DNA of 26,926 nucleotides from a gamma proteobacterium symbiont of Bathyaustriella thionipta (lineage in GTDB: Bacteria; Pseudomonadota; Gammaproteobacteria; Chromatiales; Chromatiaceae). A program made the translations under genes and the position numbers. The stretch covers positions 1-26,926 of the forward strand of contig JAHXHF010000397.1 in assembly GCA_025656895.1 (NCBI GenBank). Reading direction: 5' to 3'. Positions 8,007-26,660 of the stretch are shown in pieces (within the stretch, counting starts at the first letter, position 1; each line of letters opens with the position of its first letter). The notes under the pieces were generated by a model. It was not told where the DNA came from and did no database searches. It saw only the letters and a list, made by a program, of their open reading frames with translations.

Positions 8007-8837
8007 TTAAGCTACCATTCTGGTAAACCTGTGCGAGACTGTGCTGTGCATGGCAAGAATATTACCGTTTTGGGCAGCCCTGGTTAGCCAGAATAAAGCC
8101 TTTTCCGGGTTGGACTTTACGTCCAGAGCGCCATTCGTGTAGCGCAGTGCCAGTTCATATTGAGCGTGAGGGTCGTTCTGAAGAGCACGCTCATGCAGAC
8201 GCTGGTAATTTTCCTGGGTCAAGGGGGTGGCTTCCTTGACCAGTGATTCAATCAGCCCCGACAGATGCACCGCCTCAAGATGCCCATTGGCCGCAGCGCG
8301 ACGTAGCCATTGCAGCGCGGTATTCTGATCCTGCTTAACGATAACTCCCTCGTGATGCATGCGCCCCAGCAGATATTGGGCATTCGGATTGCCTTCTTCG
8401 GCAGCCTGACGGAGCCATTTTCCGGCTTCCTGCGTGTCTTTTGGCACGCCATTTCCTGCCAGCAGCGCTTTGGCCAGATAGTATTTCGATTCGGTATTAC
8501 CTTTTTCGGCTGCCCTGCGCCACCACTGGGCCGCTTTCAGTGTATTTTTCTCAATACCCTTGCCTTGTGAATAGGCATTTCCCAGTACCATGCATGCGTA
8601 GGCATTGCCTCTTTCAGCTGCTCGCCGTATCCAGACCAGTCCCTGACCTGCATCTGCTTTGAGGTTGTAGCGTCCTTCGATCAAGGCCAGTCCATAGAGC
8701 AATTCGTCGCCTGCATCGCCTTGCAATGCTTGCTGTTTGATGAGGTCAACTTCAGAAAGCTGGTCGTCATCTCTGGCGCAGGCAAGAGTAGCTGTTATCA
8801 GGGTAATGCCGAGAAGTAACCATATTTTAGACTTCAT
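8007..8837 (-). CDS. Secreted Sel1-like repeat protein; C-terminus frameshifted (restored gene would end at 7930)
   Basis: N-terminal signal peptide and five Sel1 repeats (...W.RRAAE.G). A sixth repeat (LAQVYQNG...KDEEKARFWRDRA) continues in another frame after a 5-bp duplication. The start overlaps the sulP stop. Confidence 0.9.
   Translation of the reverse strand: MKSKIWLLLGITLITATLACARDDDQLSEVDLIKQQALQGDAGDELLYGLALIEGRYNLKADAGQGLVWIRRAAERGNAYACMVLGNAYSQGKGIEKNTLKAAQWWRRAAEKGNTESKYYLAKALLAGNGVPKDTQEAGKWLRQAAEEGNPNAQYLLGRMHHEGVIVKQDQNTALQWLRRAAANGHLEAVHLSGLIESLVKEATPLTQENYQRLHERALQNDPHAQYELALRYTNGALDVKSNPEKALFWLTRAAQNGNILAMHSTVSHRFTRMVA
8039..8048. repeat. 5-bp tandem duplication CTGTG-CTGTG causing the Sel1 gene frameshift
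   Basis: Read directly: GAGA-CTGTG-CTGTG-CAT. Removing one copy restores ...AMHSLAQVYQNG... on the minus strand. Confidence 0.85.
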
Positions 8838-10590
8838 TGGCTGGCTCCTTGTCGTTCTGTACCTGTTGTTCCGTATTTTGCTCCTCCAGTTTGCGTTGCA
8901 GCGAAACTACCGCAGTTTGTACGGAAGGATAAACATTCTCCTTGCCCACCAGTTCACACACTCCGGTACGATCAAAAGTCTCCAGCACGTTTTCCTTCAG
9001 ATTGGCAAAAGACAGACCTACACCCGACTTGGACAGCCGGTCGAGAAGATTGCGTAACATCTCCACTCCTGACGCATCCAGTCCATTGATGCCATCACCC
9101 ACCACCAGAATCTCATGCAGGTCAGGATCTGAGCCAATCAGGTAAAGTACTGCATCCTCGAAATAGCTGACATTGGCAAAATAAAGCTGACCATCAAAAC
9201 GGATAGCGGTTATCTGGGGGTGAAGTTTTGGCAGGTTGTAGCGTTTGGCACTGCGCAGAACACCCTGTTCATCAATACCCAGCATGACAACGCCCGGACG
9301 CATGGTACGGAACAGAAAAAGTACCAGTGACAAGAGGATGCCGGTAAGAATACCGTTCTGAATATTCGGTGCAAAAGCCAGTGTGGCAAAAAAAGTAACG
9401 ATAGCGGCCATGCCATCCTGCGGCTGGGCCTTCCAGGCATCCAGGATTGTTTCAACATTAATCAGACCAAAAACAGCCATCATAATGATGGCGGCCAGTA
9501 CCGGCTTGGGCAGATGGTGCAACAGCGGTGTTAAAAAGAAAAGAGTGAGTAATACAACCAGTGCGCTGATGACGGATGCCAGACCGGTTTTGGCGCCGGT
9601 GGCCAGGTTAAGCGCAGAGCGGGAGAAAGAACCACTCACCGGCATGCCATGACTGAATGCTGCGGCTATCTTGGCCAGGCCTTGTCCGATCAGCTCCTGA
9701 TTTTCATCCCAGCGGGTACGTGTCTTGATGGCAATAATCTTGGAACTGGACATGGCCTCCATGAAACTGATAATGGCAATAACGAAGGCGGCTGGCAGCA
9801 TGTGCAGGCTGGCCACCAGATCGAATGGCGGCATGCTCAACTTAGGCGGTCCCTGTGGAATAACGCCTACAACCACGCCACCTTGTGCTTCAAACCCTGT
9901 CAGATAGCTGATCACTGTGGTGATGATCACAACCATCAGCACGCCGGGTATTTTGGGCGTGAAGCGTTTAAACAATATAAGCAGCAGTAGTGAGCCAAAT
10001 CCAAATGCCAGTGAAGGCAGATGAGTGCGGGCAGAGTGCTCGATAACATGCAGTACATCAATCATGAAGTGCGGGCCGTGCTCCAGATTGAGCCCCAGCA
10101 TGGCTGGTAATTGCGCCAATGCAATAATCAGGGCCGCCGCATTGATAAATCCCCGCAGTACCGGATAGGAAAGAAAATTGATCAGTACTCCCATGCGCGC
10201 CACGCCCAGGATGATCTGCATCAAACCGGACAACAATGCCATGAGAATGACGTAGGCAAAAAACTGATCCGTGCCGAACTTGGCCAGGGTCATGACGCTG
10301 GCTGCCGTCAGTAGTGAAGTCATGGCTACCGGCCCGGTCGAAAGGGCTGGTGAAGAACCCCACAGCGCACCAATAATCACCGGCAGGAAAGAGGCATAAA
10401 GACCGTAATAAGGAGGTACTCCTGCCAGTTGGGCGTAAGCCAGAGATTGCGGAATAGCCACCAGTGCCACGGTGATACCGGCAATCAGATCGGCCCTGAT
10501 CGTTTCCCGGTTCACCTGCGGCAACCAGGCTATAAATGGAAGCAGGCGTTGCCACAGTGATACATGCGTGCGTTTGATAATAATGGTCAT
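8827..10590 (-). CDS. sulP: SulP/SLC26 family anion transporter with C-terminal STAS domain
   Basis: ADLIAGITVALVAIPQSLAYA, GLY, TGPVA, SGSFSRS, STAS-type RFDGQLYFANV and LDASG. Start reassigned to ATG 10590, preceded by GGAG. The substrate cannot be assigned from sequence. Confidence 0.95.
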   Translation of the reverse strand: MTIIIKRTHVSLWQRLLPFIAWLPQVNRETIRADLIAGITVALVAIPQSLAYAQLAGVPPYYGLYASFLPVIIGALWGSSPALSTGPVAMTSLLTAASVMTLAKFGTDQFFAYVILMALLSGLMQIILGVARMGVLINFLSYPVLRGFINAAALIIALAQLPAMLGLNLEHGPHFMIDVLHVIEHSARTHLPSLAFGFGSLLLLILFKRFTPKIPGVLMVVIITTVISYLTGFEAQGGVVVGVIPQGPPKLSMPPFDLVASLHMLPAAFVIAIISFMEAMSSSKIIAIKTRTRWDENQELIGQGLAKIAAAFSHGMPVSGSFSRSALNLATGAKTGLASVISALVVLLTLFFLTPLLHHLPKPVLAAIIMMAVFGLINVETILDAWKAQPQDGMAAIVTFFATLAFAPNIQNGILTGILLSLVLFLFRTMRPGVVMLGIDEQGVLRSAKRYNLPKLHPQITAIRFDGQLYFANVSYFEDAVLYLIGSDPDLHEILVVGDGINGLDASGVEMLRNLLDRLSKSGVGLSFANLKENVLETFDRTGVCELVGKENVYPSVQTAVVSLQRKLEEQNTEQQVQNDKEPANEV

Positions 10591-10638
10591 GACTGCTGTT
10601 TCTCCATCAGGAAGCTCTTTTGCAAGTGCCGGACTCAC

Positions 10639-10761
10639 TAGCCGATATTGATATTGTGAAGGCGGCCAGGAGTCGTATTAATATTAGTAGTTTTTAATTT
10701 TACCAAACGTCTGTATTGATGTATAGTACATAAATTATTAAATAAATTTAAACGTTAATTA
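10639..10761. promoter_or_regulatory. AT-rich divergent control region between sulP and the XRE-Ehr operon; inverted repeat ATGTA-N3-TACAT at 10719-10731
   Basis: Visibly AT-rich compared with the flanking CDSs; divergent gene starts; the short palindrome was read directly. Confidence 0.55.
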
Positions 10762-11028
10762 GTGATGATAACAGGAAGTCAAATGAAGGCAGCTCGCGCT
10801 CTGCTAGGCATAGATCAGCGCCAACTGGCAGATTTGGCCGATCTATCGTTGCCCACTGTACAGCGTATGGAGTCATCTGAAGGCGTCGTACGTTGTAATG
10901 TAGAGTCCATGATGCGGATTATGGAAGCCTTGCGGCAGGCCGGGGTGGAACTGATTGCCGATGACGCCGATAGTCAGGGCAGTGGGCGTGGTGTACGTTT
11001 GCTTGTCGCAGAGGCTGGGCACTCATGA
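10762..11028 (+). CDS. XRE/Cro-family helix-turn-helix transcriptional regulator
   Basis: ITGSQMKAARALLGIDQRQLADLADLSLPTVQRME...EALRQAGVELI...GRGVRL. The stop overlaps the hyfB-like ATG (ATGA). The start may be ATG 10765. Confidence 0.9.
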   Translation: MMITGSQMKAARALLGIDQRQLADLADLSLPTVQRMESSEGVVRCNVESMMRIMEALRQAGVELIADDADSQGSGRGVRLLVAEAGHS

Positions 11029-13037
11029 CGGATTTTTCGCCTCTGCTACTGGCCGAACTGGCTATTCTTGCGGTTCTGTTGTCGGCCCTGTCTGCGCTGG
11101 CCACCCGGCACCTGCCGGCATTGATGCGTCAACTGGTGATTCCGCTGATGGGATTTTCCGGTCTGCTGGCCTTGCTGGCCGGCGTGTGGACACTGGGCAC
11201 GGGGCAGAACAGCACAGCCATACTGCCTATAGGGTTACCCTGGTTACCCTGGCAATTGCATCTGGATGCATTGGCCGGGCTGTTTCTTTCTCTGGTTGGC
11301 GGTATTACTTTCATCGTTTCCTTTTACGCGCCGGCTTATGTGCGTGAGTTCGAGCATGGCAATGATTCGCTGCCTGCACTGGGTGGCTTCACCGGCCTGT
11401 TTATTGCCGGCATGCAAATGGTGATATTGAGTGATGGTGCCTTTGTATTTATGGTCAGCTGGGAGCTGATGTCACTCAGTTCCTACTTTCTGGTTACCTT
11501 TCAGCACGAAAAAGCGGCCAATCGCCGTGCCGGTTTTCTTTACTTGCTGATGGCGCATATCGGCGGACTTTCCATCCTGCTGGGCTATGCGCTGCTGGCC
11601 GCCTACGGTCATGGCCTTAGTTTCGAGGCTATGCGTGCCGCCAGTTTGCCTGAAGGCTGGGCTACCCTTGCCTTTTTGCTGGCCCTGTTTGGCTTTGGCA
11701 TGAAAGCCGGTCTGTTGCCGGTGCATGTGTGGTTGCCGGAAGCGCACCCGGTAGCGCCTTCGCACATCTCGGCGCTTATGTCGGGCGTGATGCTGAAAGT
11801 TGCGGTTTACGGCCTGATCCGCTTTACCTGGGATCTGCTTGGCGATGTACACTGGCAATGGGGTGTAACCCTGCTGATTGTCGGTTCCCTTTCGGCGATT
11901 ATGGGTGTGCTGTATGCCATGATGCAGCAGAATATGAAGCGTCTGCTGGCTTATAGCTCGGTGGAAAATATCGGTATTATCTTTATCGGCCTGGGGTTGT
12001 CGGCCATTTTCAGTGGCACCGGCCATCCGGCACTGGCGGTCATCGGCCTGGTGGCTGCCCTTTACCATGCACTCAATCACGCCATGTTCAAGAGCCTTAT
12101 GTTCCTCGCGGCCGGTGCGGTGCTGCATAGCACGCGTGAACACGATCTTGATCAGATGGGCGGTTTGTTGCGGCGTATGCCCTGGACCGGCCTGTTTTTT
12201 CTGCTCGGTTGCATCAGTATCGCTGCCTTGCCGCCGTTCAATGGCTTCGTGTCCGAATGGCTTACTTTTCAGACTTCATTACAGGCCTGGGCGCTGGACA
12301 GCGGCATTTTGCGTACCCTGCTGCCCATTGCAGCCGCCGTGCTGGCGCTGACCGGAGCCATCGCTGCGGCCACATTCGTGAAACTCTACGGTATCGCTTT
12401 TCTTGGCCGGGCACGCTCGCGCCGGGCGCGTCGGGCGCGCGAAGTAAGTCTGGGTATGCGTAGCGCGCTGGCTATGCTGGCCATCGTCTGTCTGCTGCTG
12501 GGTATTCTGCCCACGCTGGTCATAGATACTCTGAATAGCATTCCTCAACAACTGCTGGGCAAGGGGCTAGAGCAAGCCACCGCCCATGGCTGGTTGTGGT
12601 TGACACCGGTATCTGCCGAAACCGCCAGCTATTCCGCTCCTTTGGTCTTTATCGGAGCCTTGCTCACCTGGTGGCTGGCACAGTTTTTGTTGCGCCGGGG
12701 CAGTGTTCGCAAAGTACGCTATGGCGACCCCTGTGACTGCGGCTTCGGTACGCCGAATGCTCGTATGCAGTACACCTCTGTGGCCTTCGCGCAACCCATG
12801 CGGCGGGTTTTTGCTGACCTTTTCCGGCTGCGCGAAGAAGTTACGCGTGATGAACAGGGACGCGAGCGTCACCAGTTGCAGGTTGAAGACCCGTTGTGGG
12901 ACTGGCTGTATCTGCCGCTGGCGCGGGCGGTTAATGCCTTGTCAAAACTGGTTTCACGACTGCAATCCGGTAATGTCCGTATTTATCTGGGATGGTCACT
13001 GGCAACTCTGGTGGTATTGTTATGGCTGATCTCCTGA
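11025..13037 (+). CDS. hyfB: Antiporter-like membrane subunit (HyfB/NuoL-M-N family) of an Ehr complex
   Basis: WELMSLSSYFLV, GFGMKAG..P.HVWLPEAHPVAPSHISALMSGVMLK, KRLLAYSSVEN, PPFNGFVSEW. Confidence 0.92.
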   Translation: MTDFSPLLLAELAILAVLLSALSALATRHLPALMRQLVIPLMGFSGLLALLAGVWTLGTGQNSTAILPIGLPWLPWQLHLDALAGLFLSLVGGITFIVSFYAPAYVREFEHGNDSLPALGGFTGLFIAGMQMVILSDGAFVFMVSWELMSLSSYFLVTFQHEKAANRRAGFLYLLMAHIGGLSILLGYALLAAYGHGLSFEAMRAASLPEGWATLAFLLALFGFGMKAGLLPVHVWLPEAHPVAPSHISALMSGVMLKVAVYGLIRFTWDLLGDVHWQWGVTLLIVGSLSAIMGVLYAMMQQNMKRLLAYSSVENIGIIFIGLGLSAIFSGTGHPALAVIGLVAALYHALNHAMFKSLMFLAAGAVLHSTREHDLDQMGGLLRRMPWTGLFFLLGCISIAALPPFNGFVSEWLTFQTSLQAWALDSGILRTLLPIAAAVLALTGAIAAATFVKLYGIAFLGRARSRRARRAREVSLGMRSALAMLAIVCLLLGILPTLVIDTLNSIPQQLLGKGLEQATAHGWLWLTPVSAETASYSAPLVFIGALLTWWLAQFLLRRGSVRKVRYGDPCDCGFGTPNARMQYTSVAFAQPMRRVFADLFRLREEVTRDEQGRERHQLQVEDPLWDWLYLPLARAVNALSKLVSRLQSGNVRIYLGWSLATLVVLLWLIS

Positions 13038-13987
13038 ATCCTGTTGACTGGCTGCTGGCGCTGTTGCAGGTGCTGCTGTTTGCGCTGGCCGCACCCTTGC
13101 TGGCTGCCTGGGTCAAACGCATCAAGAGTCGGCTGCAAAACCGCCGCGGACCTTCTTTGTTACAGCCTTACCGTGATTTACGCAAGCTGTTCAGAAAAGA
13201 AGCACGGGTAGCCAACAGTGCTTCTCCGTTATTCCGGGCCGCACCCTATGTGGTCTTTTCTGCAACCTTGATCGCGGCCTCTACGGTGCCGCTGCTGGCC
13301 GTACATCTGCCTACCGCCATTCTGGCTGATGTGATTGTTCTGGTCGGCTTTCTGGCTTTGGCGCGCTTTTTTCTGGCGCTGGCGGGCATGGATGTGGGTA
13401 GCGCATTCGGTGGCATGGGGGCTTCGCGTGAAATGCTGATTTCAGCCCTGGCTGAACCGGCCATGCTGATGGCGATATTCACGCTTACCATGAGCGCACA
13501 CAGCACCAACCTGTCCAGTGTCATTCAGCATGTACTGGATAGCGGGTTGCTGTTGCGACCCTCCTTTTTGTTTGCTTTGCTGGCGCTGCTGCTGGTGGCG
13601 GTTGCCGAAACCGGTCGTATTCCGATCGATAATCCGGCGACCCATCTGGAACTGACCATGGTACATGAAGCCATGATTCTGGAATATTCCGGTCGCCACC
13701 TGGCATTGATGGAATGGGCCGCCCAGATCAAGCTGTTGCTGTACGGCGTATTGATCAGCAATATTTTCCTGCCCTGGGGCATGGCGCAACAACTGGAACC
13801 GCTGCCGTTGCTGATCGGGCTGGCGGCCATTGCCGGCAAGCTGATGCTGCTGGGAGTGGTGCTGGCGGTTTCAGAAACCCTGGTAGCCAAAATGCGCCTG
13901 TTCCGGGTGCCGGCTTATCTCAATCTGGCCTTCCTGCTGGGCTTGCTGGGCATGCTCAGTCATGTGATTCTGGAGGTGGGTGTATGA
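13022..13987 (+). CDS. hyfC: NuoH-like membrane subunit (HyfC/HycD) of an Ehr complex
   Basis: RLQNRRGPSLLQPYRDLRKL, FGGMGASRE, ETGRIPIDNPATHLELTMVHEAMILEYSG. Start taken as ATG 13022. Confidence 0.92.
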   Translation: MADLLNPVDWLLALLQVLLFALAAPLLAAWVKRIKSRLQNRRGPSLLQPYRDLRKLFRKEARVANSASPLFRAAPYVVFSATLIAASTVPLLAVHLPTAILADVIVLVGFLALARFFLALAGMDVGSAFGGMGASREMLISALAEPAMLMAIFTLTMSAHSTNLSSVIQHVLDSGLLLRPSFLFALLALLLVAVAETGRIPIDNPATHLELTMVHEAMILEYSGRHLALMEWAAQIKLLLYGVLISNIFLPWGMAQQLEPLPLLIGLAAIAGKLMLLGVVLAVSETLVAKMRLFRVPAYLNLAFLLGLLGMLSHVILEVGV

Positions 13988-14661
13988 ACCTGGCGCAACT
14001 CGGTCTGCTGGAACAGTCTATTTTTGTGCTGGTGGCGCTGGCGCTGTTCCTTTCCTTTGTGCTGTTGTCGCAGGCACGTCTGACGACCATGATTCACGTC
14101 TTTGCCTGGCAGGGTTTTCTACTGGCTTTGCTGACCGCCATTGTGGCTGCTCTGGGAGACAATCCACATCTTTATATTTCGGCATTGCTTACTTTCCTGT
14201 TAAAGGTATTGCTGATTCCCGCCATGCTGCACCGTCTGATCAGGCGACTGGAACTGGAACGCCACCAGGAACGTCTGCAGAAACAGGCTCTGGTAATGAT
14301 GGCGGGGGCGGCTCTGGTTATCTTCAGTTATTGGGTGGTATTGCCTATCACCCACATGGAACTGGCGCATATCCGCAATGTGGTCAGCCTCAGTCTGGCC
14401 ATTGTTCAGTTGGGTATGCTGCTGATGGTGGCGCGTCGTCAGGTAGTGGCGCAGGTGATCGGTTTCATGTCCATGGAAAATGGCCTGTTTCTGGCAGCTG
14501 TGGCCGCTACTGCGGGTATGCCGCTGGTGGTCGAGTTGGGCATTGCTTTTGATGTGCTGGTGGCTGCGGTGCTGTTTGGCGTATTTTTCTTCCACATTCG
14601 AGACAGTATCGACACCCTGGATGTGGATCAGCTCACACGGCTGTCTGAGGAGGAACGCTAA
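13984..14661 (+). CDS. hyfE: HyfE-like membrane subunit (C-terminal NuoK-like region) of an Ehr complex
   Basis: Real start is ATG 13984, overlapping the hyfC stop; QVIGFMSMENGLFL...GMPLVVELGIAFDV. Confidence 0.9.
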   Translation: MNLAQLGLLEQSIFVLVALALFLSFVLLSQARLTTMIHVFAWQGFLLALLTAIVAALGDNPHLYISALLTFLLKVLLIPAMLHRLIRRLELERHQERLQKQALVMMAGAALVIFSYWVVLPITHMELAHIRNVVSLSLAIVQLGMLLMVARRQVVAQVIGFMSMENGLFLAAVAATAGMPLVVELGIAFDVLVAAVLFGVFFFHIRDSIDTLDVDQLTRLSEEER

Positions 14662-14663
14662 TC

Positions 14664-16136
14664 GTGAATGCCCTCTATGTGATGCTGGGTTTGCCTGCTG
14701 TCGGTGCCATTCTGTTTGTCGCCATCCATAACACACGACTTGCCGGCTGGCTGAATATAGGCGTCAGCGCCGCCAGTCTGGCCGCATCTGTGCTTCTGGC
14801 CTGGGCGGTTATGCAGCAGGGTAGCCTGCACAACGACAATTTTCTGGTGGATTCTTTCAATATCTATCTACTGGTATTGACCACCTTTGTAGGACTGACA
14901 ACAGCTATTTTCTCACGTCCCTATATGCAACATGTCTGCGAAGAGGGCCGCTGCAGCACAGTTCGTATGCGTTTGTATCACAGCATGTTTCAGTCGTTCA
15001 TGTTTACTATGTTGCTGGCTCTTTCAACCAATAATCTGGGGGTGCTCTGGGTGACGGTCGAGGGCGCAACACTGGCAACCGTCATGCTGGTTTCGATCTA
15101 CCGCACACCGGAGGCGGTGGAAGCGGCCTGGAAATATTTTATTCTGTGCGGTGTCGGTATCGCTCAGGCATTGTTCGGCACCATACTGCTGTATTTTGCC
15201 GCGCAGCATGTGCTGGTCAATCCGGAAGAAGGTCTGAACTGGCTGACACTACAGCAGCATTCGGCTGAACTGAGTCCCACGGTGATGGCCATCGCCTTTG
15301 TCTTTCTGCTGGTCGGCTATGGCACCAAGATTGGCCTGGTGCCACTGCATCAGTGGTTGCCGGATGCGCATTCGGAAGGTCCTACGCCCATGTCCGCCAT
15401 GCTTTCCGGTCTGTTGCTGAATATTGCCCTGTATGCCGTCATCCGGGTTAAGATGTTGACAGACAGCTCGCTGGCAGCCACACAACATCCACACATGGCT
15501 GGCCATTTGCTGATGGGCTTTGGTCTGATTTCGTTCCTGATTGCCGGCTTGTTTCTGCACCGCCAACGCGACATCAAACGCCTGTTCAGCTATTCATCCA
15601 TCGAACACATGGGACTGGCCACCTTTGCCTTTGGTATAGGCGGGCCGCTGGCTACCTTTGCGGCATTGTTGCATATGCTGGTGCATTCACTGACCAAATC
15701 ATCCATCTTTATTACGGTAGGGCATGCTACCCACATTGCCGGTACGCAGAATATCGAACATATCCGCGGCCTGATTCGTACCCAGCCGACGGTTGGCTGG
15801 GGGCTGCTGTTTGGCGTGGCCGCCATTGCCGGCTTTCCACCCTTTGGTATTTTCACCAGTGAATTTCTGTTATTGAATGCCACCATGCAAAGCTGGCCCT
15901 GGCTAAGTGTGTTACTGCTGATAGGGCTGGGCATTGCTTTTGCCGGTCTGTTCCGTCATCTGCATCCTATGGTATATGGAGCCACTCCCGAGGGACAATC
16001 GGCTGTCAAGGTAAATATGATTCCGGTCGCCATACAATTGTTGTTGGTGATCTGGATAGGTCTGGCCATGCCTGCTTTTCTGGCTGGCTGGCTGGATCAG
16101 GCAGTACAGTTGATCAGCGGAAAGGGATTACTATGA
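14664..16136 (+). CDS. hyfF: Second antiporter-like membrane subunit (HyfF) of an Ehr complex
   Basis: WVTVEGATL, EAAWKYFILCGVGIA, GYGTKIGLVPLHQWLPDAHSEGPTP, KRLFSYSSIEHMG, FTSEF. Confidence 0.92.
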   Translation: MNALYVMLGLPAVGAILFVAIHNTRLAGWLNIGVSAASLAASVLLAWAVMQQGSLHNDNFLVDSFNIYLLVLTTFVGLTTAIFSRPYMQHVCEEGRCSTVRMRLYHSMFQSFMFTMLLALSTNNLGVLWVTVEGATLATVMLVSIYRTPEAVEAAWKYFILCGVGIAQALFGTILLYFAAQHVLVNPEEGLNWLTLQQHSAELSPTVMAIAFVFLLVGYGTKIGLVPLHQWLPDAHSEGPTPMSAMLSGLLLNIALYAVIRVKMLTDSSLAATQHPHMAGHLLMGFGLISFLIAGLFLHRQRDIKRLFSYSSIEHMGLATFAFGIGGPLATFAALLHMLVHSLTKSSIFITVGHATHIAGTQNIEHIRGLIRTQPTVGWGLLFGVAAIAGFPPFGIFTSEFLLLNATMQSWPWLSVLLLIGLGIAFAGLFRHLHPMVYGATPEGQSAVKVNMIPVAIQLLLVIWIGLAMPAFLAGWLDQAVQLISGKGLL

Positions 16137-17728
16137 ATCGTTTCGACTGGTTATCAGAATATCTCGCCAGACTGGAAGACGAGCATGTGGTCGTGCCCTC
16201 TGGTAATACACAGTCGCTGGCTCCTGCGCATTTGCTGATTATTGATCCGGAAGACTGGGCCAAGGTGGCGGTGGTGGCAAAACAAATGGGATTACGCTGG
16301 GCAGCCATCTGGGGTGATGAACAGGATCATGACATTGTACTGACGGTTGTTCTGGTCTATCAGGGTGATTACATAGCCCTACGCACCGCCATGACTGGCG
16401 ATCATCCCGTTATTGCCTCTCACACACCGGTCTATGCCGCAGCTGACCGTATGGAACGGCACCTGGCGGATATGCTTGGTGTACAGTTTGACGGCCACCC
16501 GGATCCACGCCGCTGGACGCGCCACCGCGCCTGGGAAGCCGATGAATACCCCTTGCGCGCCCATTTTCCGGCCGCCGGCCAGGGTAACGGGCTTACACCG
16601 GCCGACAGTGATTACCCTTTTCCTCCCATTCAGGGTTCGGGGGTGTACGAAATTCCGGTCGGGCCGGTGCATGCGGGCATTATTGAGCCCGGACATTTCC
16701 GTTTTCAGGCTGCCGGTGAGCCCATTCTGAGGCTGGAAGAACGTCTTGGCTATGTCCACAAGGGCATAGAAAAACGCGCCATTGGACGTGACGCTGAAGG
16801 GTTGGCGCGACTGGCCGCACGCATCTCCGGTGACAGCACGGTAGCTCACAGCTGGGCTGCCTGCCAGGCACTGGAACGGGCCTGTCATGTAAAAATACCG
16901 GCAAAAGCCAGCCTCATTCGCGGTCTGTTATGTGAAAGAGAGCGCGTTGCCAACCACCTGGGGGATATTGGCGCCATCTGTAATGATGTAGGTTTTGCAT
17001 TCGCCCAGATGCAATGCCAGGCGTTGCGTGAACAATGGCTGCGCCACAGTCTGACGCTGACCGGCCATCGCCTGATGATGGATGTGGTGCTACCGGGGGG
17101 CGTCCGCGTGGATATTGATCAGGCAGGCCGTGAGCTACTGCGTGCCGAGCATGTCTGGCTACGCGAACAAATCGGTCCTTTGTTTGATATTCTCAACGAC
17201 CATCCTTCGCTGGAAGACCGCTTGCTCAGCAGTGGCTATCTGTCTCCGGCCAGTGCTGCGGAACTGGGAGTGAGTGGCTATGTGGGCAAGGCATCCGGAC
17301 AGGCTGTTGATTTGCGCAAGGATTCGCCCTATGCACCTTATTCCCGTTTGTCGTTCAGCGTTGCGTTGTCCGAGGCCGGAGACGTGGCGGCCCGCATGGC
17401 TATTCGCCAGCAGGAAATCTACAGCAGCCTCGAACTGATGAACGAAATGCTTGACATACTGGAGAATACAGCCGAATCAGAGCCGACGCAGGTAAAGCTG
17501 GCGCCCATACTCGGAGCCGAAGGGCTGGGGTTGATCGACGGCTGGCGGGGTGAAATCATCAGTCATGTACGTCTGGATGACAAGGGGCGCATTGCTCATT
17601 TCTTTGCCCGTGATCCCAGCTGGTTTAGCTGGCCGGCGCTGGAGCGCATTGTGCTTGGCAATATTGTTCCCGATTTTCCGGTATGCAATAAATCGGTAAA
17701 CGCTTCCTATTCGGGACAGGATCTGTGA
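16133..17728 (+). CDS. ehrL: Ehr large subunit: NuoC+NuoD/HycE-like fusion lacking Ni-binding cysteines
   Basis: NuoC-type ERHLADMLGVQFDGHPDPRR and HycE-type GPVHAGIIEPGHFRF...GYVHKGIEK. The L1 motif RxCGxC reads RISGDS; the L2 motif DPCxSC reads NASYSG. Confidence 0.9.
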   Translation: MNRFDWLSEYLARLEDEHVVVPSGNTQSLAPAHLLIIDPEDWAKVAVVAKQMGLRWAAIWGDEQDHDIVLTVVLVYQGDYIALRTAMTGDHPVIASHTPVYAAADRMERHLADMLGVQFDGHPDPRRWTRHRAWEADEYPLRAHFPAAGQGNGLTPADSDYPFPPIQGSGVYEIPVGPVHAGIIEPGHFRFQAAGEPILRLEERLGYVHKGIEKRAIGRDAEGLARLAARISGDSTVAHSWAACQALERACHVKIPAKASLIRGLLCERERVANHLGDIGAICNDVGFAFAQMQCQALREQWLRHSLTLTGHRLMMDVVLPGGVRVDIDQAGRELLRAEHVWLREQIGPLFDILNDHPSLEDRLLSSGYLSPASAAELGVSGYVGKASGQAVDLRKDSPYAPYSRLSFSVALSEAGDVAARMAIRQQEIYSSLELMNEMLDILENTAESEPTQVKLAPILGAEGLGLIDGWRGEIISHVRLDDKGRIAHFFARDPSWFSWPALERIVLGNIVPDFPVCNKSVNASYSGQDL

Positions 17729-17738
17729 GGGAACAGCC

Positions 17739-18263
17739 ATGTTGAGGATACTGAAACGCATCTATCACAGCGGCCTGCTCACCGAGAATGAGCCGGATTA
17801 TCTGCAAGACCCGGAGGTTCAAGCTCTGGGCAGTGAACTGAAAACGGTTGTGGATGCGCATTTCAATGGCAGCCTTGCCATTCGTGCGGTGGATGCCGGC
17901 TCCTGCAATGCCTGCGAACTGGAAATACACGCCATCAACGGACCGCACTATGACATTGAACGCTTCGGCGTACATTTTGTTGCATCCCCCCGGCATGCTG
18001 ATGTGTTACTGGTAACCGGACCGGTATCACGTCATATGGAAACCGCTGTGCGCCGAACCTGGCGTGCTATGGCTGCTCCGCGTTTTGTGATTGCCTGTGG
18101 TGATTGCGCCTGCAATGGTGGTGAATTCGGCAGCAGCTACGCCAGCTGTGGTGCTGTGGAGAACGTTATTCCGGTCGATTTGCAAATAGCAGGTTGCCCG
18201 CCATCCCCCGTCCAGTTGATGCGCGGTATTCTTGCACTGATGCAAAAGGCAAAAAAGATATAA
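17739..18263 (+). CDS. ehrS: Ehr small subunit (NuoB/HycG-like, one [4Fe-4S] cluster)
   Basis: GSCNACELE, ASPRHADVLLVTGPV, GDCA, GCPP: all four cluster cysteines are present. Confidence 0.92.
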   Translation: MLRILKRIYHSGLLTENEPDYLQDPEVQALGSELKTVVDAHFNGSLAIRAVDAGSCNACELEIHAINGPHYDIERFGVHFVASPRHADVLLVTGPVSRHMETAVRRTWRAMAAPRFVIACGDCACNGGEFGSSYASCGAVENVIPVDLQIAGCPPSPVQLMRGILALMQKAKKI

Positions 18264-18309: not shown

Positions 18310-18338
18310 TTGGCATTCAAAAAAGTTTGCGCTATATT
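18310..18338 (+). promoter_or_regulatory. sigma70 promoter of leuA
   Basis: TTGGCA (18310-18315), exactly 17 bp, TATATT (18333-18338). Confidence 0.7.
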
Positions 18339-18344
18339 CACGCT

Positions 18345-18449
18345 ATGAATTCCAGCATTAGTCATTGGTTCCCTGTTCCGGGTAGTTTCAACACCGGGCC
18401 AATGGCTGTGTCCGCACCCCGCCTGTTTCTGCTGCGACTGCTGCCCTGA
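18345..18449 (+). CDS. Putative Leu-rich leader peptide of leuA (34 aa; 15 aa if started at ATG 18402)
   Basis: MNSSISHWFPVPGSFNTGPMAVSAPRLFLLRLLP*: five Leu (all CTG) in the last 8 codons, directly upstream of leuA. Not listed in the ORF track. Confidence 0.65.
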   Translation: MNSSISHWFPVPGSFNTGPMAVSAPRLFLLRLLP

Positions 18450-21328: not shown

Positions 21329-21874
21329 TCAGGCCTTGCCGGAAACCACTCGTTCAATTGATTTGGATACTTCGTGAACTTCAAACTGCATACTTTGCAG
21401 ATCGCCTAAAACCCAGGTTGCGGGAGCTGTACCTACGCCACCCACGGTACCGGGGTTAACCAGGTAACAGGGCTCGCCTTTGCAACTCTGTAGCTGCTCA
21501 ATATTCACTTTATGACTGTGGCCGCAACAAACCAGATCCCAGTCTCCGGTGCAGGCCATCGCCCGTGCATAATGCGGGTAATGCACCAGAAAGATACGTT
21601 TGCCGTCCAGCTGCAGACCGGCATCCATACCCTGAAAATGAAAAATGCTGCCGGGTTTATTACACAGGCGGCTCATGGCGAAAAGGTCGCCACTGTTGTT
21701 GCCGTGTATGACATGCACCGGCAGGCCATATTTTTGCAAACAATGAAGCGTACTGGGCGCGACCACATCTCCACAATGAAGCACCGCTTCCGCGCCCAGG
21801 TCAAGGGCTTGTTCAACCGCATGGTCCAGCAACGGAATATGGTCATGGCTGTCGGACAGAATGCAGACTTTCAC
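21329..21874 (-). CDS. YfcE/MJ0936-type metallophosphoesterase
   Basis: SDSH, HCGD, HGNN, GHSH, NPG motifs. The GTG start overlaps the ppa stop. Confidence 0.9.
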   Translation of the reverse strand: MKVCILSDSHDHIPLLDHAVEQALDLGAEAVLHCGDVVAPSTLHCLQKYGLPVHVIHGNNSGDLFAMSRLCNKPGSIFHFQGMDAGLQLDGKRIFLVHYPHYARAMACTGDWDLVCCGHSHKVNIEQLQSCKGEPCYLVNPGTVGGVGTAPATWVLGDLQSMQFEVHEVSKSIERVVSGKA

Positions 21875-22422
21875 TAGAAATTGGGCTTTTCGGGTGCATC
21901 CTTAAACATGGCCACACTGTCCATGATTTCCTGTTTGGCTTCATCAGGGCCGGCCCAGCCATCCACACGCACCCACTTGCCTTCATCCAGATCTTTGTAA
22001 TGCTCAAAGAAATGCGCGATCTGATCGAGTAAGAGTTGCGGCATGTCATCGGTGCAGGAAGCATCTTTATAGGAACGGCACAGCTTGCTGATGGGGACAG
22101 CCAATACTTTGGCGTCATCGCCCGATTCATCCGTCATTTTCAGTACACCGACAGGGCGGCATTGAATGACAGAGCCGGGAATCAGCGGCACCGGAGTAAC
22201 CACCAGAACATCGACAGGATCACCGTCTTTTGACAAGGTATGAGGGACATAACCGTAGTTGCAGGGGTAGTGCATGGCGGTACTCATAAAGCGATCCACG
22301 AACATGGCGCCGGTTTTTTTATCCACTTCATATTTTACCGGATCGGCATGTGCCGGAATTTCAATGATGACATTAATTTCGTTGGGTACATCGCTGCCGG
22401 ATGTGACTTTGTCCAGATTCAT
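21874..22422 (-). CDS. ppa: Soluble inorganic pyrophosphatase, family I
   Basis: [42 protein letters not shown]. Start is ATG 22422 with a GGAGG SD. Confidence 0.97.
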
Positions 22423-22433
22423 ACAGGCCTCCA

Positions 22434-22465
22434 CAAATAAAAGAGGCCGGTGAAATACCGGCCTC
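22434..22465 (-). terminator. Intrinsic terminator between hppA and ppa
   Basis: Perfect 9-bp stem GAGGCCGGT/ACCGGCCTC (22443-22465) with a 5-nt loop; TTTTATTTG follows on the minus strand. Confidence 0.8.
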
Positions 22466-22528
22466 CTGGTCGAGCAGATTGTACTTTGTAGTTGCCTGCC
22501 GCGTCCAGCAGCAGGCAGCAGGTAACCA

Positions 22529-24565
22529 TCAGATCATCAGTGGAATAATCAACAGCGCAACAATATTGATGATCTTGATCAGCGGGTTAATCGCAGGGCC
22601 AGCCGTATCTTTGTACGGGTCGCCTACGGTATCACCGGTTACGGCGGCTTTATGCGCATCCGAACCTTTGCCGCCATGATTACCATCTTCGATGTATTTC
22701 TTGGCATTATCCCAGGCACCACCACCGGTGGTCATGGAAATGGCCAGGAAGATACCGGTGACGATGGAACCCAGCAGAACGCCACCCAGCGCTTGCGGAC
22801 CCAGCCACAGGCCAACAACAACCGGAACCAGAATAGGTAACAATGAAGGCAGAACCATTTCACGAATAGCCGCTTTGGTCAGCATGTCTACAGCACGTGA
22901 ATAATCCGGTTTCTGGGTATGATCCATAATACCCGGCATGGCTTTGAACTGACGGCGAACCTCGTTCACAATGCCACCAGCCGCACGACCAACCGCTTCC
23001 ATCGCCATGGCACCAAACAGGTAAGGCACCAGACCACCGATAAACAGGCCGATGATGACCATGTGGTTAGACAGATCAAAGCTGACGGACAGGCCGTTGG
23101 CTTCCAGCGTATGGGTATAATCAGCAAACAATACCAGTGCAGCCAGACCGGCTGAACCAATGGCGTAACCTTTGGTGACCGCTTTGGTGGTATTACCTAC
23201 CGCATCCAGTGGATCGGTAATGTTACGGATTTTTTCATCCATTTCTGCCATTTCAGCGATACCACCGGCGTTGTCGGTGATGGGGCCGTAAGCGTCCAGG
23301 GCAACAATAATACCGGTCATGGACAGCATGGAAGTTGCTGCAACCGCAATACCATACAAGCCAGCCAGGTCATAAGCACCCCAGATGGAAGCACATACCG
23401 CAATAACCGGCAGAGCGGTGGATTTCATGGAAACCCCCAGGCCGGCGATTACGTTGGTGCCGTCACCGGTGGTAGAGGCTTCCGCGATGTGGCGTACCGG
23501 ACTGTATTCGGTAGCGGTGTAGTACTCGGTAATAACAACCATGGCGGCCGTCAGTACCAGGCCAATTAACGCCGAGCCAAACAAGGCTATGGTGGTATTG
23601 GTTACACCGGGTATAACAACGTCGGCCATCATATAATCGGTCACAAAGTAAAAGGCTATGGCGGCAATAACACCGGCCACAATCAGACCTTTGTAGAGAG
23701 CAATCATGATTTTGGTATCGCCGGGCTTGGCTTTAACAAACCAGGTACCGATAATGGAGGCAATAATGGAAACACCACCCAGAACCAGTGGGTAAATCAT
23801 GGCTTCTGTACCTGCATTGCTCAGCATCAGGCCACCTAACAGCATGGTGGCAACGATGGTTACCGCATAGGTTTCAAACAGATCAGCGGCCATACCGGCG
23901 CAGTCGCCTACGTTGTCGCCCACGTTATCGGCAATAACAGCCGGGTTACGTGGATCATCTTCCGGGATGCCAGCTTCCACTTTACCCACAATATCGGCGC
24001 CTACATCAGCGCCTTTGGTAAAGATACCGCCACCCAGTCGGGCAAAGATAGAAATCAGGGAGCCGCCGAAGGCCAGGCCAACCAGTGCGTGAGCCGCATC
24101 GGCGCTTGGAACACCCATAGACAACAGGGCGGCAAAATAGCCCGCAACACCCAGCAGACCCAGACCAACAACCAGCATGCCGGTAATAGCGCCGCCACGA
24201 AAGGCAATTTGCAGGGCTGCGTTCAAACCTTTATGGGCAGCTTCCGCGGTACGCGCATTGGCGGCTACCGAGACATTCATGCCGATAAAGCCAGCCGCAC
24301 CGGAAAGGATGGCGCCAATAGCAAAACCGATGGCGGTAGTGGTTCCGATAAACCACCACAACAAGACGCACAGAATGACACCGACCAGGCCGATGGTGGT
24401 GTATTGGCGGTTCAGATAGGCTTTGGCGCCTTCCTGAATGGCGCCGGAAATTTCTCGCATACGCTCATTGCCTTCTGACTGGGACTTGATCCAGCGCACG
24501 GAAAAAAAGCCGTAGGCGATGGCAAGCACGCCGCTGGCTAAAGCAAACATTAAGCCGGTACTCAT
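22529..24565 (-). CDS. hppA: Membrane-bound proton-translocating pyrophosphatase, K+-independent type
   Basis: [68 protein letters not shown] carries the Lys diagnostic of K+-independent enzymes. Confidence 0.97.
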
Positions 24566-24782
24566 AGGTCTATACTCCTTCGTGTAACATTAAGAAAATT
24601 TGATAACGACTCGCTACGCCACTGAAACAGGTCTTGATCAAGGTTAAAAAACAGTTATTTACAGAGGTAAACGTCTATTGCCAACCTTGACTGGACGCAT
24701 GCCAGAGGCATTTTGAACCGTTACGCGGAATTTTTACTGCTTATATTCAATACAAAATTTATAGGAACAGGATTTTGATCAC

Positions 24783-24986
24783 TTAACCGGTTACTTTCGA
24801 GAAATCAGTGCCGCTTTTCAGATCAAATCGTTCATCCAGTTCAAGTTCACGTATCAGACCATCAACGGCAGCCTGACCGTGTGTTCTTTGCACTTCAGCC
24901 AGAATCAGGCGTACCGAATTGCGGTTATAGCCGCCACCAAATTCAAGCTGGGTTATGATTAATTGTCGGGCTTTATCGATAGTCAT
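24783..24986 (-). CDS. Small hypothetical protein (67 aa; 74 aa if started at ATG 25007)
   Basis: MTIDKARQLIITQLEFGGGYNRNSVRLILAEVQRTHGQAAVDGLIRELEL...: plausible helical protein filling the gap between pfp and hppA. No family recognised. Confidence 0.65.
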   Translation of the reverse strand: MTIDKARQLIITQLEFGGGYNRNSVRLILAEVQRTHGQAAVDGLIRELELDERFDLKSGTDFSKVTG

Positions 24987-24988
24987 CA

Positions 24989-25017
24989 GAAAAAAGAGGA
25001 GGTGCATAAGCACCTCC
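24989..25017 (-). terminator. Intrinsic terminator after pfp
   Basis: Minus strand GGAGGTGC-TTAT-GCACCTCC followed by TCTTTTTT, 9 nt after the pfp stop. Confidence 0.8.
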
Positions 25018-25026
25018 GCATTAATT

Positions 25027-26280
25027 TTAAAGTTCGAAAATATCCAGTTTCTTCTCAACAGCCGCATTATCCAGTGTGACGTATTTCGGCATACCGTTTT
25101 CATACGGAGGGTAATCTTCACCCTGAATCAGTGGGTAGAGATATTCTTTGCAGGCATCGGTAATAGCAAAACCATCATCCGTGATGAATTCCATTGGCAT
25201 CATTTTTTCGACATTGGCAACATCGCTTAAAGGCGCTTCACCAATAGACCACTTGTATGGGTTGGAAGATTCACGAACCACGGTCGGCATAATGGAATTT
25301 TTGCCTTCCAGTGCTTTTTCAACGGCCGCCTGTCCCAATGCGTAGGCTTGCTGAACATCCGATTCTGATGCCAGATGACGGGCTGCGCGTTGCAGATAAT
25401 CTGCCACCGCCCAGTGAAATTTGTAACCCAGTGCATCTTTAATAATGTTGGCTACAACCGGCGCTGCACCACCCAGCTGGGCGTGGCCGAAAGAATCGCG
25501 GGTGCCCTGCTCAGCCAGAAATTTACCGTCCGGCCAATGACAGCCTTCAGAAACCACAATGGTGCAAAAGCCGTGTTCTTTCACTTTGGCATCAACATTG
25601 GCAAGAAATTTTTCCTGGTTAAATTCCACTTCAGGAAATAGCGTGACCACAGGAATACCCTGGTCTTCAACCAGAGCTCCGGCCGCTGCAATCCAGCCAG
25701 CGTGGCGGCCCATAACTTCAATTACAAAGATCTTGGTAGAAGTGGCGGCCATGGAGCGGACGTCAAAAGAGGCTTCCAGGGTGGAAACCGCAATATATTT
25801 GGCTACTGAGCCAAAACCCGGGCAGTTATCGGTAATCGGTAAGTCATTATCGACCGTTTTGGGTACATGAATGGCTTGTACCGGATAGCCCATTTTTTCA
25901 GACAGTTGGGATACCTTGTAGCAGGTATCCGCTGAATCACCGCCGCCGTTGTAAAAGAAGTAGCCGATGTTGTGAGCTTTGAAGATTTCGATCAGGCGTT
26001 CGTATTCACGCTTGTTTTCTTCCAGGCTTTTCAGTTTGAAACGACAGGAACCAAAGCCACCGGACGGGGTGTTCTTCAGGGCGGCAATATTTTCGGCAGA
26101 TTCTTTGCTGGTATCAATTAGATCTTCGGTGAGAGCACCGATGATGCCGTTACGACCAGCATAAACGGTGCCGATCTTGTCGCTGTGTTGACGGGCTGTT
26201 TCAATAACACCGCATGCTGATGCGTTGATGACAGCGGTTACACCGCCGGATTGTGCGTAAAAAGCATTTTTGCTGCTCAT
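25027..26280 (-). CDS. pfp: Pyrophosphate-dependent 6-phosphofructokinase
   Basis: AQSGGVTAVIN, NGGGDS (Asp at E. coli position 104), PKTVDND (Lys at position 124), EVMGRHAGW. Start is ATG 26280 or 26286. Confidence 0.9.
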   Translation of the reverse strand: MSSKNAFYAQSGGVTAVINASACGVIETARQHSDKIGTVYAGRNGIIGALTEDLIDTSKESAENIAALKNTPSGGFGSCRFKLKSLEENKREYERLIEIFKAHNIGYFFYNGGGDSADTCYKVSQLSEKMGYPVQAIHVPKTVDNDLPITDNCPGFGSVAKYIAVSTLEASFDVRSMAATSTKIFVIEVMGRHAGWIAAAGALVEDQGIPVVTLFPEVEFNQEKFLANVDAKVKEHGFCTIVVSEGCHWPDGKFLAEQGTRDSFGHAQLGGAAPVVANIIKDALGYKFHWAVADYLQRAARHLASESDVQQAYALGQAAVEKALEGKNSIMPTVVRESSNPYKWSIGEAPLSDVANVEKMMPMEFITDDGFAITDACKEYLYPLIQGEDYPPYENGMPKYVTLDNAAVEKKLDIFEL

Positions 26281-26315
26281 TCCCATATTCTCCAAGTAAT
26301 TAGTGATACAAAAAT

Positions 26316-26660
26316 CTATAAGTTGCCCTGTTGTTTGGCATGATGATCTGCCTGTGCCTGCAGCAGAGCAACGGTACATTCGGCAAGATCTGTGTATTCC
26401 CGCTTGCCGGTATTGTATTGCTGATGCGGACGGTAAAAAAACTGTCCGCGATAATTTTGGTCGCCTGTTTTGAAAACAACAAAATGACAGCCGCCATCCG
26501 ACCAGTAAAGACTGGGGACGCTGGTCAGTTCCCGGTCACCGCGATGCAGACGTATTTCACAGTCAACCACCTGTAATTCAACATCCCGGTTGTAGCGTTC
26601 TTTTAGAGTGGTATCAACGAGCCACTTTTCGTTTTGGTTAATATCCGTTAATGTGCTCAT
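26316..26660 (-). CDS. Hypothetical protein (114 aa)
   Basis: MSTLTDINQNEKWLVDTTLKERY...LYW...FVVFKTG...YRGQFFY...QYNTG...DLAECTVALLQAQADH. Globular, aromatic-rich composition, same strand as pfp and about 30 bp upstream of it. No family assigned. Confidence 0.75.
   Translation of the reverse strand: MSTLTDINQNEKWLVDTTLKERYNRDVELQVVDCEIRLHRGDRELTSVPSLYWSDGGCHFVVFKTGDQNYRGQFFYRPHQQYNTGKREYTDLAECTVALLQAQADHHAKQQGNL

Follow-up and report, generated by a model that had tools for sequence, protein, structure and literature searches.

An intact Ehr-class operon of the hyqRBCEFGI type, with a conserved polar pocket in place of the Ni-Fe site, in a sulfur-oxidising gammaproteobacterium

The stretch of DNA analysed here (the window) comprises 26,926 nucleotides (nt) of contig JAHXHF010000397.1, from the assembly GCA_025656895.1 of a gamma proteobacterium symbiont of Bathyaustriella thionipta. 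It carries seven same-strand genes with minimal or negative spacing, namely hyqR, hyqB, hyqC, hyqE, hyqF, hyqG and hyqI, which together encode a regulator and a membrane complex related to group-4 hydrogenases. Start and stop codons overlap as ATGA at 11025, 13984 and 16133, a 16-nt overlap lies at 13022, and the remaining two gaps measure 2 nt and 10 nt. An earlier note on this DNA, made from the letters alone, had described six tightly coupled genes in the order hyfB-C-E-F-large-small; open reading frames (ORFs), junctions and domain matches bear out these six structural genes, but the seventh gene, hyqR (10765–11028), had been overlooked. The genes are the following.

10765–11028, plus strand: hyqR, an 87-amino-acid XRE/Cro-type helix-turn-helix protein (Pfam HTH_3), whose stop codon overlaps the hyqB start (ATGA)
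11025–13037, plus strand: hyqB (EhrA), a NuoL/HycC-like antiporter-type subunit of 670 amino acids (Proton_antipo_M, 6.6e-56; HycC, 1.2e-62; above the cut-off of the NCBIfam model 'hydrogenase 4 subunit B')
13022–13987, plus strand: hyqC (EhrB), a NuoH/HycD-like subunit of 321 amino acids (Pfam NADHdh, 4.2e-39)
13984–14661, plus strand: hyqE (EhrC), a HyfE-like membrane subunit of 225 amino acids, related to NuoJ/K (NCBIfam hydrogenase 4 membrane subunit, 4.3e-27, below the cut-off of that model; weak Oxidored_q2)
14664–16136, plus strand: hyqF (EhrD), a NuoM/N-like (HyfF-like) antiporter-type subunit of 490 amino acids (Proton_antipo_M, 2.9e-52)
16133–17728, plus strand: hyqG (EhrL), a fused NuoC-NuoD/HycE-like large subunit of 531 amino acids without Ni-Fe ligands (HycE, 1.7e-54; N-terminal stretch of NiFeSe_Hases)
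17739–18263, plus strand: hyqI (EhrS), a NuoB/HycG-like small subunit (Oxidored_q6, 4.9e-31; HycG, 1.7e-31)

Because the seventh coupled gene heads the operon and its product is 64% identical to the regulator of a rhizobial hyq operon, the locus is, by sequence comparison, almost certainly an intact hyqRBCEFGI-type operon, a subtype of the Ehr class. The canonical Ni-Fe ligands are missing from ehr as well as from hyq (PMC4758237), and the locus is therefore assigned as a Hyq-type member of that class. The Hyq/Ehr system has already been described and is widespread, and the copy in the window is an ordinary, intact new member. The closest solved structures are the subunits of E. coli formate hydrogenlyase, followed by Pyrococcus MBH, with the complex I subunits clearly behind. 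Two of the six structural genes score above the NCBIfam thresholds for 'hydrogenase 4 subunit B' and 'subunit F', and this accounts for the common misannotation; the earlier remark that Ehr is often taken for hydrogenase-4 thus applies here too, these two subunits being so named by PGAP-type models.

The same seven-gene order is found in the hyq genes of Azorhizobium caulinodans ORS571 (AZC_4355-4360 plus hyqR) and in the pRL11 copy of Rhizobium johnstonii 3841, and these are the closest described systems; the earlier note, which had compared the locus with Geobacter, was right about the Ehr class and had not reached this nearer relative. In Azorhizobium, hyq is a tightly organised seven-gene operon with the regulator first and with neither hyfA nor hyfD (Ng 2009, PMC2650096; Sprecher 2012, PMC3357923). 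The pRL11 copy served as the Hyq reference for sequence comparison. There, an annotated 'helix-turn-helix transcriptional regulator' overlaps hyfB by 4 nt and is followed by the same six genes, a coupling like that in the window. The identity of 64% between HyqR and this protein (over 73 amino acids) exceeds that of the large subunits (42%), and pRL11 HyqG reads RTSGDS and NCSYSG at the positions where the window protein reads RISGDS and NASYSG. Like the window operon, the rhizobial operons lack a NuoI-type subunit and keep the four cluster cysteines of HyqI. In a quick IQ-TREE analysis of 103 large subunits, rooted at the midpoint merely for display, the window and pRL11 HyqG proteins fall into one clade of 19 rows with a support of 97 in the Shimodaira–Hasegawa-like approximate likelihood ratio test, and the Cys-bearing hydrogenases form one compact clade elsewhere. 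There are also differences from the rhizobial operons: the window HyqG is extended in its N-terminal NuoC-like part (531 instead of 504 amino acids); a divergent pair of SulP and Sel1 genes adjoins the operon; the operon promoter is sigma70-like, whereas NifA/sigma54 elements have been described for Azorhizobium hyq; and no nifD was found in its host, in contrast to the diazotrophic setting of hyq in Azorhizobium.

The name Ehr was given by Coppi 2005 to the complex of Geobacter sulfurreducens (GSU0739-0745), and the family was treated by Marreiros 2013, both as cited in three later papers (PMC6349859, PMC7894505, PMC4758237). The definition used here (PMC6349859, PMC10284858, PMC4758237) is that of a multisubunit membrane complex resembling group-4 hydrogenases, with antiporter-type subunits and a large subunit lacking Ni-Fe ligands, and all of these features are found in the window. 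By description, which is the only level at which it was compared, the Geobacter Ehr is likewise a membrane-bound, group-4-like set with antiporter-type subunits and without Ni-Fe ligands; its subunits are more abundant in formate-grown cells (PMC7894505). The hyc-like operon Rv0081-Rv0087 of Mycobacterium tuberculosis, also compared by description only, is a seven-gene unit headed by a regulator, like that in the window, and has been regarded as an EHR complex and not a hydrogenase since the Hyp maturation genes are missing (PMC6728331).

In the large subunit, both motifs that hold the Ni-Fe ligands in hydrogenases are altered:

16820–16837, plus strand: former L1 motif, RISGDS in place of RxCGxC, under RVCGIC of HycE
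17699–17716, plus strand: former L2 motif, NASYSG in place of DPCxxC, under DPCYSC of HycE

Because RISGDS and NASYSG lie exactly under RVCGIC and DPCYSC in the HMMER alignment of HyqG with E. coli HycE (7z0s_E, E = 1.7e-54), all four Ni-Fe cysteines are gone. The earlier note had claimed this loss from the motifs and had proposed, as a test, a search for cysteines conserved at other positions; the alignment leaves the ligand columns without Cys, and none of the six cysteines of HyqG (244, 251, 267, 283, 295 and 518) is invariant in the family.

Conservation extends to the residues that replace the ligands. They were counted in 74 Cys-less representatives, each from a different 50%-identity cluster and 33–52% identical to the window HyqG, and compared with 17 Cys-bearing sister hydrogenases. 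The family signature is R-x-S-G-D-[S/T] together with N-L-S-Y-[S/A]-G. The column of the former first cysteine holds Ser in 61 and Ala in 13 of the representatives and is followed by Gly in 70; that of the former second cysteine is more variable (Ser 29, Thr 20, Glu 10, Asn 6). The residue just ahead of the latter is Asp in 66 of the 74, whereas the Cys-bearing sisters have Val, Ala or Met there. The L2 columns read N in 58, L in 60, S in 66 (former third cysteine), Y in 65, S in 36 or A in 28, and G in 69 (former fourth cysteine). The hydrogenase-type Glu of the EPGHFR loop is retained in 72 of the 74, and the His after L1 in 45. In the window protein the pocket consists of Ser232-Gly-Asp234-Ser235, Ser525 and Gly528, with the hydrogenase-type Glu185 and His239 retained. 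The alignments thus point firmly to replacement of the Ni-Fe site of HyqG by a conserved polar pocket, and the derived, conserved Asp in that pocket, beside the cluster, argues for a new functional site and not for decay. The fold itself is kept: an AlphaFold2 model of HyqG (predicted local distance difference test score, pLDDT, 91.5) matches HycE (7z0s_E) in a fold search with a template modelling score of 0.93 and a root-mean-square deviation of 2.2 Å, and the group-4 hydrogenase large- and small-subunit fold and the proximal [4Fe-4S] ligands are present in HyqG and HyqI. The comparative data argue against a NiFe mechanism; by sequence the complex is not a NiFe hydrogenase.

As the earlier note had observed, HyqG has no C-terminal maturation tail, since it ends three residues past the last ligand position. 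However, the Cys-bearing hydrogenases nearest to Hyq/Ehr (P0168–P0263) also end three residues past their last Ni-Fe ligand and are therefore without the cleavable C-terminal extension expected from HycE-type maturation, so the missing tail does not discriminate and has no diagnostic value.

The cluster cysteines of HycG, MbhJ and NDUFS7 have their counterparts in C56, C59, C123 and C153 of the small subunit; all four [4Fe-4S] cysteines are therefore kept, as had been claimed. No gene for NuoI, formate dehydrogenase, NuoEFG, Hyp proteins or a maturation protease was recognised in the window by Pfam and NCBIfam matches, and the operon contains no NuoA. Nor does NuoI, a NuoEFG module, any other ferredoxin-like subunit, formate dehydrogenase or flavoprotein recur within 6 kb of the operon in 80 related loci, and the sole NuoI of the genome sits inside the complex I operon. 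The claims of the earlier note that the complex has no NuoI/HyfH, formate dehydrogenase or NuoEFG input, and that the window has neither hyp genes nor a protease, therefore stand, the latter for the window itself, since both HypD and a HycI-type protease were found elsewhere in the genome. By gene content, the complex has room for a single redox centre, namely the N2-type [4Fe-4S] cluster of HyqI.

The E. coli Hyc complex (HycCDEFG, PDB 7Z0S) and hydrogenase-4 (Hyf) have the same fused NuoC-NuoD-like large subunit as the window. However, HycE carries the four Ni-Fe cysteines and depends on Hyp proteins and on the HycI protease, and its electrons come from formate dehydrogenase via HycF and HycB; the window operon has none of these features. 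With complex I (NuoA-N) it has a homologous L-shaped core in common (equivalents of NuoB, C, D, H, J/K and L/M/N, and the N2-type cluster), but it is without NuoEFG, NuoI, NuoA and the quinone head-group ligands. The last point was read from an ungapped HMMER alignment with T. thermophilus Nqo4 (2fug_4), in which His38 corresponds to Ile184 and Tyr87 to Gly233 of HyqG; these two Nqo4 residues are the quinone head-group ligands known from complex I structures, and both are absent from HyqG. HyqC is far nearer to HycD (5.7e-44) than to E. coli NuoH (2.7e-8).

These features bear on the proposal that the complex is a true 'endo-hydrogenase', that is, an H2:quinone oxidoreductase with H2 chemistry at HyqG and electron flow through the HyqI cluster to membrane quinone. 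The genetics of Azorhizobium speak for it: when hupSL and hyq are both mutated in A. caulinodans, nodules evolve 27 umol H2 per g per h, as opposed to about 0.3 for either single mutant (Ng 2010, PMC2930871), the operon is NifA-controlled (PMC2650096), and H2 evolution below 1 uM O2 has been ascribed to Hyq (PMC3357923). These studies of the Ludwig laboratory provide genetic evidence for hyq in H2 recycling and no biochemistry (PMC2650096, PMC2930871, PMC3357923). The statement in the earlier note that no reaction is established is thus correct in that no biochemistry exists, and it had left aside the genetic link to H2 recycling (PMC2930871); the function of Ehr is still given as unknown in the literature (PMC10284858, PMC6728331). 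Moreover, the window operon groups with its rhizobial counterpart in the tree, and the window's genome has hyp genes. The replacement of all four Ni-Fe ligands, the conservation of what replaced them, the missing quinone ligands (Ile184, Gly233) and the nearness of HyqC to HycD rather than NuoH all count against this proposal, and so does the distribution of the genes that it would need, which follows.

The host is a sulfur-oxidising, non-diazotrophic gammaproteobacterium from a mollusc metagenome, with a genome of 2.64 Mb that is 99.9% complete. Elsewhere it contains one complete complex I (on another contig), two loci with matches to true NiFe large subunits, HypD and a HycI-type protease; its HypD adjoins none of the hyq genes, and no nifD was found in it. 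The loci nearest to that of the window belong to Sedimenticola and to Chromatiales metagenome-assembled genomes (large subunit 74–75% identical), and the next nearest large subunits (51–62%) to Chromatiaceae, Thiohalomonadaceae, Halothiobacillus and many methanotrophs. A word-based search gave at least 8000 homologues. The family also has members in rhizobia, Burkholderia, Cupriavidus, methanotrophs, Geobacter and mycobacteria. An even sample of 300 gammaproteobacterial species genomes contains 38 carriers (about one in eight), defined by a close homologue at E <= 1e-60. HypD was found in 21 and not in 17 of these 38 carriers, all at least 90% complete, and nifD is present in 10 of the 37 carriers other than the window genome and was not found in 27, which makes 28 of 38 in all. 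Judging from these gene contents, the family is evidently independent of both the Hyp maturation system and nitrogenase. Since nifD was not found in 28 of the 38 carriers, recycling of nitrogenase-derived H2 cannot be the general role, and the nitrogenase link was rejected as a general explanation on the grounds of the window's genome and of the 10 in 37. In view of all this, we consider an H2:quinone oxidoreductase improbable, at a small fraction of the overall weight.

The loss of the catalytic metal ligands might also be taken as a sign that the operon is a decaying, functionless remnant of a hydrogenase operon. However, all six structural genes are under strong purifying selection, with dN/dS values of 0.04–0.13 at dS of about 0.8–1.1 (against the nearest relative, whose large subunit is 88% identical). 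The frames are intact, the operon and its gene order are conserved in most of the 80 related loci, and the replacement residues are held over 33–52% identity in a family with at least 8000 homologues. This reading is refuted by the conservation data, and its probability is close to nil. As a separate observation, a plasmid copy of the operon in Candidatus Methylocalor cossyra has an extra small ORF between hyfF and the large subunit (locus L092, 8542–8853), and transposases flank the operon there, which suggests a mobile cassette.

The membrane arm retains the residues of antiporter-type subunits. In HyqB, the Glu of transmembrane helix (TM) 5 and the Lys of TM7, TM8 and TM12 align with those of HycC and MbhH, and in HyqF the TM5 Glu, TM7 Lys and TM12 Lys are retained by comparison with MbhH. 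In Mrp antiporters, too, the MrpA/D-like subunits have a TM5 Glu and TM7/TM12 Lys, which HyqB and HyqF match in alignments to MbhH, HycC and MrpA. However, the Mrp complex lacks a peripheral arm and contains the small subunits MrpB, E, F and G, whereas the window operon encodes NuoH-, NuoCD- and NuoB-like subunits instead. The earlier idea of an ion-translocating complex with some other chemistry at the former NiFe pocket is supported as an interpretation.

The most likely mechanism is a redox-driven or redox-gated ion-translocating module with a single cluster, which as a mechanism we hold only tentatively, well below an even chance. In such a module, one-electron redox changes of the lone HyqI cluster would drive or gate a conformational coupling that translocates H+ or Na+. 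Electrons would pass directly between this cluster and a soluble partner of low potential (ferredoxin, flavodoxin or a soluble redox enzyme, for example), which may dock on the face that is covered by NuoI/HycF in the relatives, and the Asp/Ser/Glu pocket would be a proton- or cation-handling site that replaces the H+/H2 chemistry. The H2 phenotype of Azorhizobium could, speculatively, arise from a soluble hydrogenase or a reductant pool feeding the module. Taken as a whole, that is, as a Hyq/Ehr operon with an ion-translocating mechanism, the explanation seems to us somewhat better than an even bet.

Several points weigh against it. Ion transport, the redox partner and the role of the pocket are all predictions from sequence, and the partner docking on the NuoI/HycF face is suggested solely by the missing subunit. 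The TM8 Lys of HyqF is replaced by Asn. The genetics that link Azorhizobium hyq to H2 recycling (PMC2930871) are explained only indirectly. As for expression of the operon, the only public run listed as containing this DNA is the mollusc metagenome, which is probably its source, and no RNA run was listed.

If the direction of flow were reversed, proton-motive force would push electrons uphill to ferredoxin or flavodoxin, to be used in biosynthesis, in CO2 fixation or by nitrogenase. The reversibility of the complex I family and the fit of NifA control in Azorhizobium (PMC2650096) with a supply of reductant are consistent with this, and many carriers are, by their organism names, autotrophs that need reduced ferredoxin. 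But no electron donor site was identified, the quinone ligands are absent, and the 28 carriers in which nifD was not found count against a service to nitrogenase, so we regard reverse operation as quite unlikely.

The region upstream of the operon contains a divergent gene pair and a short control region:

8007–8837, minus strand: Sel1-repeat gene, overlapping sulP (Pfam and NCBIfam)
8827–10638, minus strand: sulP, of the sulfate-permease subfamily (Pfam and NCBIfam)
10639–10764, no strand assigned: control region of 126 nt between the divergent sulP-sel1 pair and hyqR (promoter scan and TATTGA boxes)

The promoter scan placed a sigma70-like promoter, TTTACC-17-TATAGT, at 10699–10727 ahead of hyqR, and no sigma54 element was seen by eye in the region upstream of hyqR. 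TATTGA boxes lie at 10646–10651 and 10714–10719, the second inside the promoter spacer. Among the 35 of the fetched related loci in which a HyqR homologue lies upstream on the same strand, 16 have TATTGA/TCAATA upstream of hyqR (23 copies in all), whereas shuffled sequences gave 3.7 loci (4 copies) on average and never more than 9 loci; the box also occurs upstream on Rhizobium pRL11. A search for palindromes upstream of hyqR gave no single inverted repeat common to many loci, and only this hexamer is enriched, which makes the TATTGA box a candidate operator. The HyqR homologues have the N-terminus MITxxQ and the C-terminal motif GRGVRL, and an AlphaFold2 model of HyqR (pLDDT 84) resembles HipB and the controller proteins of restriction-modification systems, all of them small dimers that regulate their own genes. 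Autoregulation of the operon by HyqR, via the TATTGA boxes that overlap the sigma70-type promoter, is probable, and the divergent sulP may be under the same control.

When all ORFs lying no more than 6 kb from the operon in the 80 related loci were clustered all against all, only two recurrent neighbours emerged, hyqR (upstream, same strand) and SulP. The latter was found in 14 of the 80 loci, in several subfamilies and orientations, and adjoins the operon in 4 of the 38 evenly sampled carriers (three genera and the window genome), where SulP copy number and genome size predict about 0.4. The divergent sulP-sel1 pair is thus a possible functional partner of the hyq operon. The sel1-sulP-hyq arrangement is kept in the closest relatives (loci L012, L015 and L039), and SulP proteins of unrelated subfamilies adjoin the operon in methanotroph loci. 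The SulP of the window passes the cut-off of the sulfate-permease model and falls far short of that for BicA, and its best solved relatives are plant SULTR and SLC26 members; as a prediction from sequence, bicarbonate uptake by this SulP is not supported.

This neighbourhood is the basis for viewing the complex as a redox-independent, Mrp-like cation/proton antiporter, with the peripheral subunits as a regulatory cap, which would aid anion transport or pH homeostasis, here together with SulP (sulfate/bicarbonate). The recurrence of SulP fits such a role, as do the 126-nt control region with repeated TATTGA boxes that sulP and hyqR have in common and the antiporter residues of the membrane arm. 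On the other hand, the conservation of the four cluster cysteines in the clade (PMC3357923) speaks for a redox role, or at least for one that depends on the cluster, SulP does not adjoin the operon in most carriers, and the window SulP belongs to the sulfate-permease subfamily, under the BicA cut-off. No Rfam family, and hence no fluoride riboswitch, reached the gathering score in the window (an E-value scan of 10500–11200 yielded two chance-level matches only), and nothing, the fluoride riboswitch included, was found with Rfam in 8 related loci without hyqR (144 kb); such a riboswitch was accordingly rejected for this clade. We regard an antiporter of this kind as unlikely, though it is the most credible of the competing proposals. 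It is rather less probable that the conserved pocket, with Glu185 and His239 beside the lone cluster, forms a new non-NiFe active or ion-binding site of a redox-gated pump that energises or balances the anion traffic of SulP (sulfate/bicarbonate); if true, this would account for the recurrent pairing with SulP.

Other parts of the window also contain gene groups of some interest. At its start, a transglutaminase-like gene (47–454), an ABC exporter gene (451–2142) and a PqqD-like gene (2139–2432) overlap one another, and the region 47–2432 looks like the protease/exporter/leader-recognition part of a lasso-peptide-type cluster for a ribosomally synthesised and post-translationally modified peptide, cut by the start of the window. 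Between hyqI and leuA (18538) lies an ORF of 34 codons ending in ...LFLLRLLP (18345–18449), which is preceded by a good sigma70-like promoter, TTGGCA-17-TATATT (region 18310–18449). It may be a leucine leader peptide for attenuation of leuA, with the caveats that no clear terminator was found and that the promoter puts the transcript start almost at the ATG. On the minus strand, 21874–26379, genes for a soluble pyrophosphatase, a membrane H+-pyrophosphatase (22529–24565) and a PFK-family enzyme (25027–26379) lie together. Pyrophosphate-based energy economy is known from chemosynthetic symbionts, and this cluster suggests such an economy if the PFK is pyrophosphate-dependent.

The locus thus represents no new kind of system, and the comparative results obtained from it sharpen the open question of Hyq/Ehr function. 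Few members of the complex I superfamily that lack a demonstrated reaction are as widespread as the Hyq/Ehr complexes. The independence of the NiFe centre and of nitrogenase, the lack of quinone ligands, the polar pocket with its derived Asp, and the highly conserved, dedicated regulator provide handles for mutagenesis and biochemistry.

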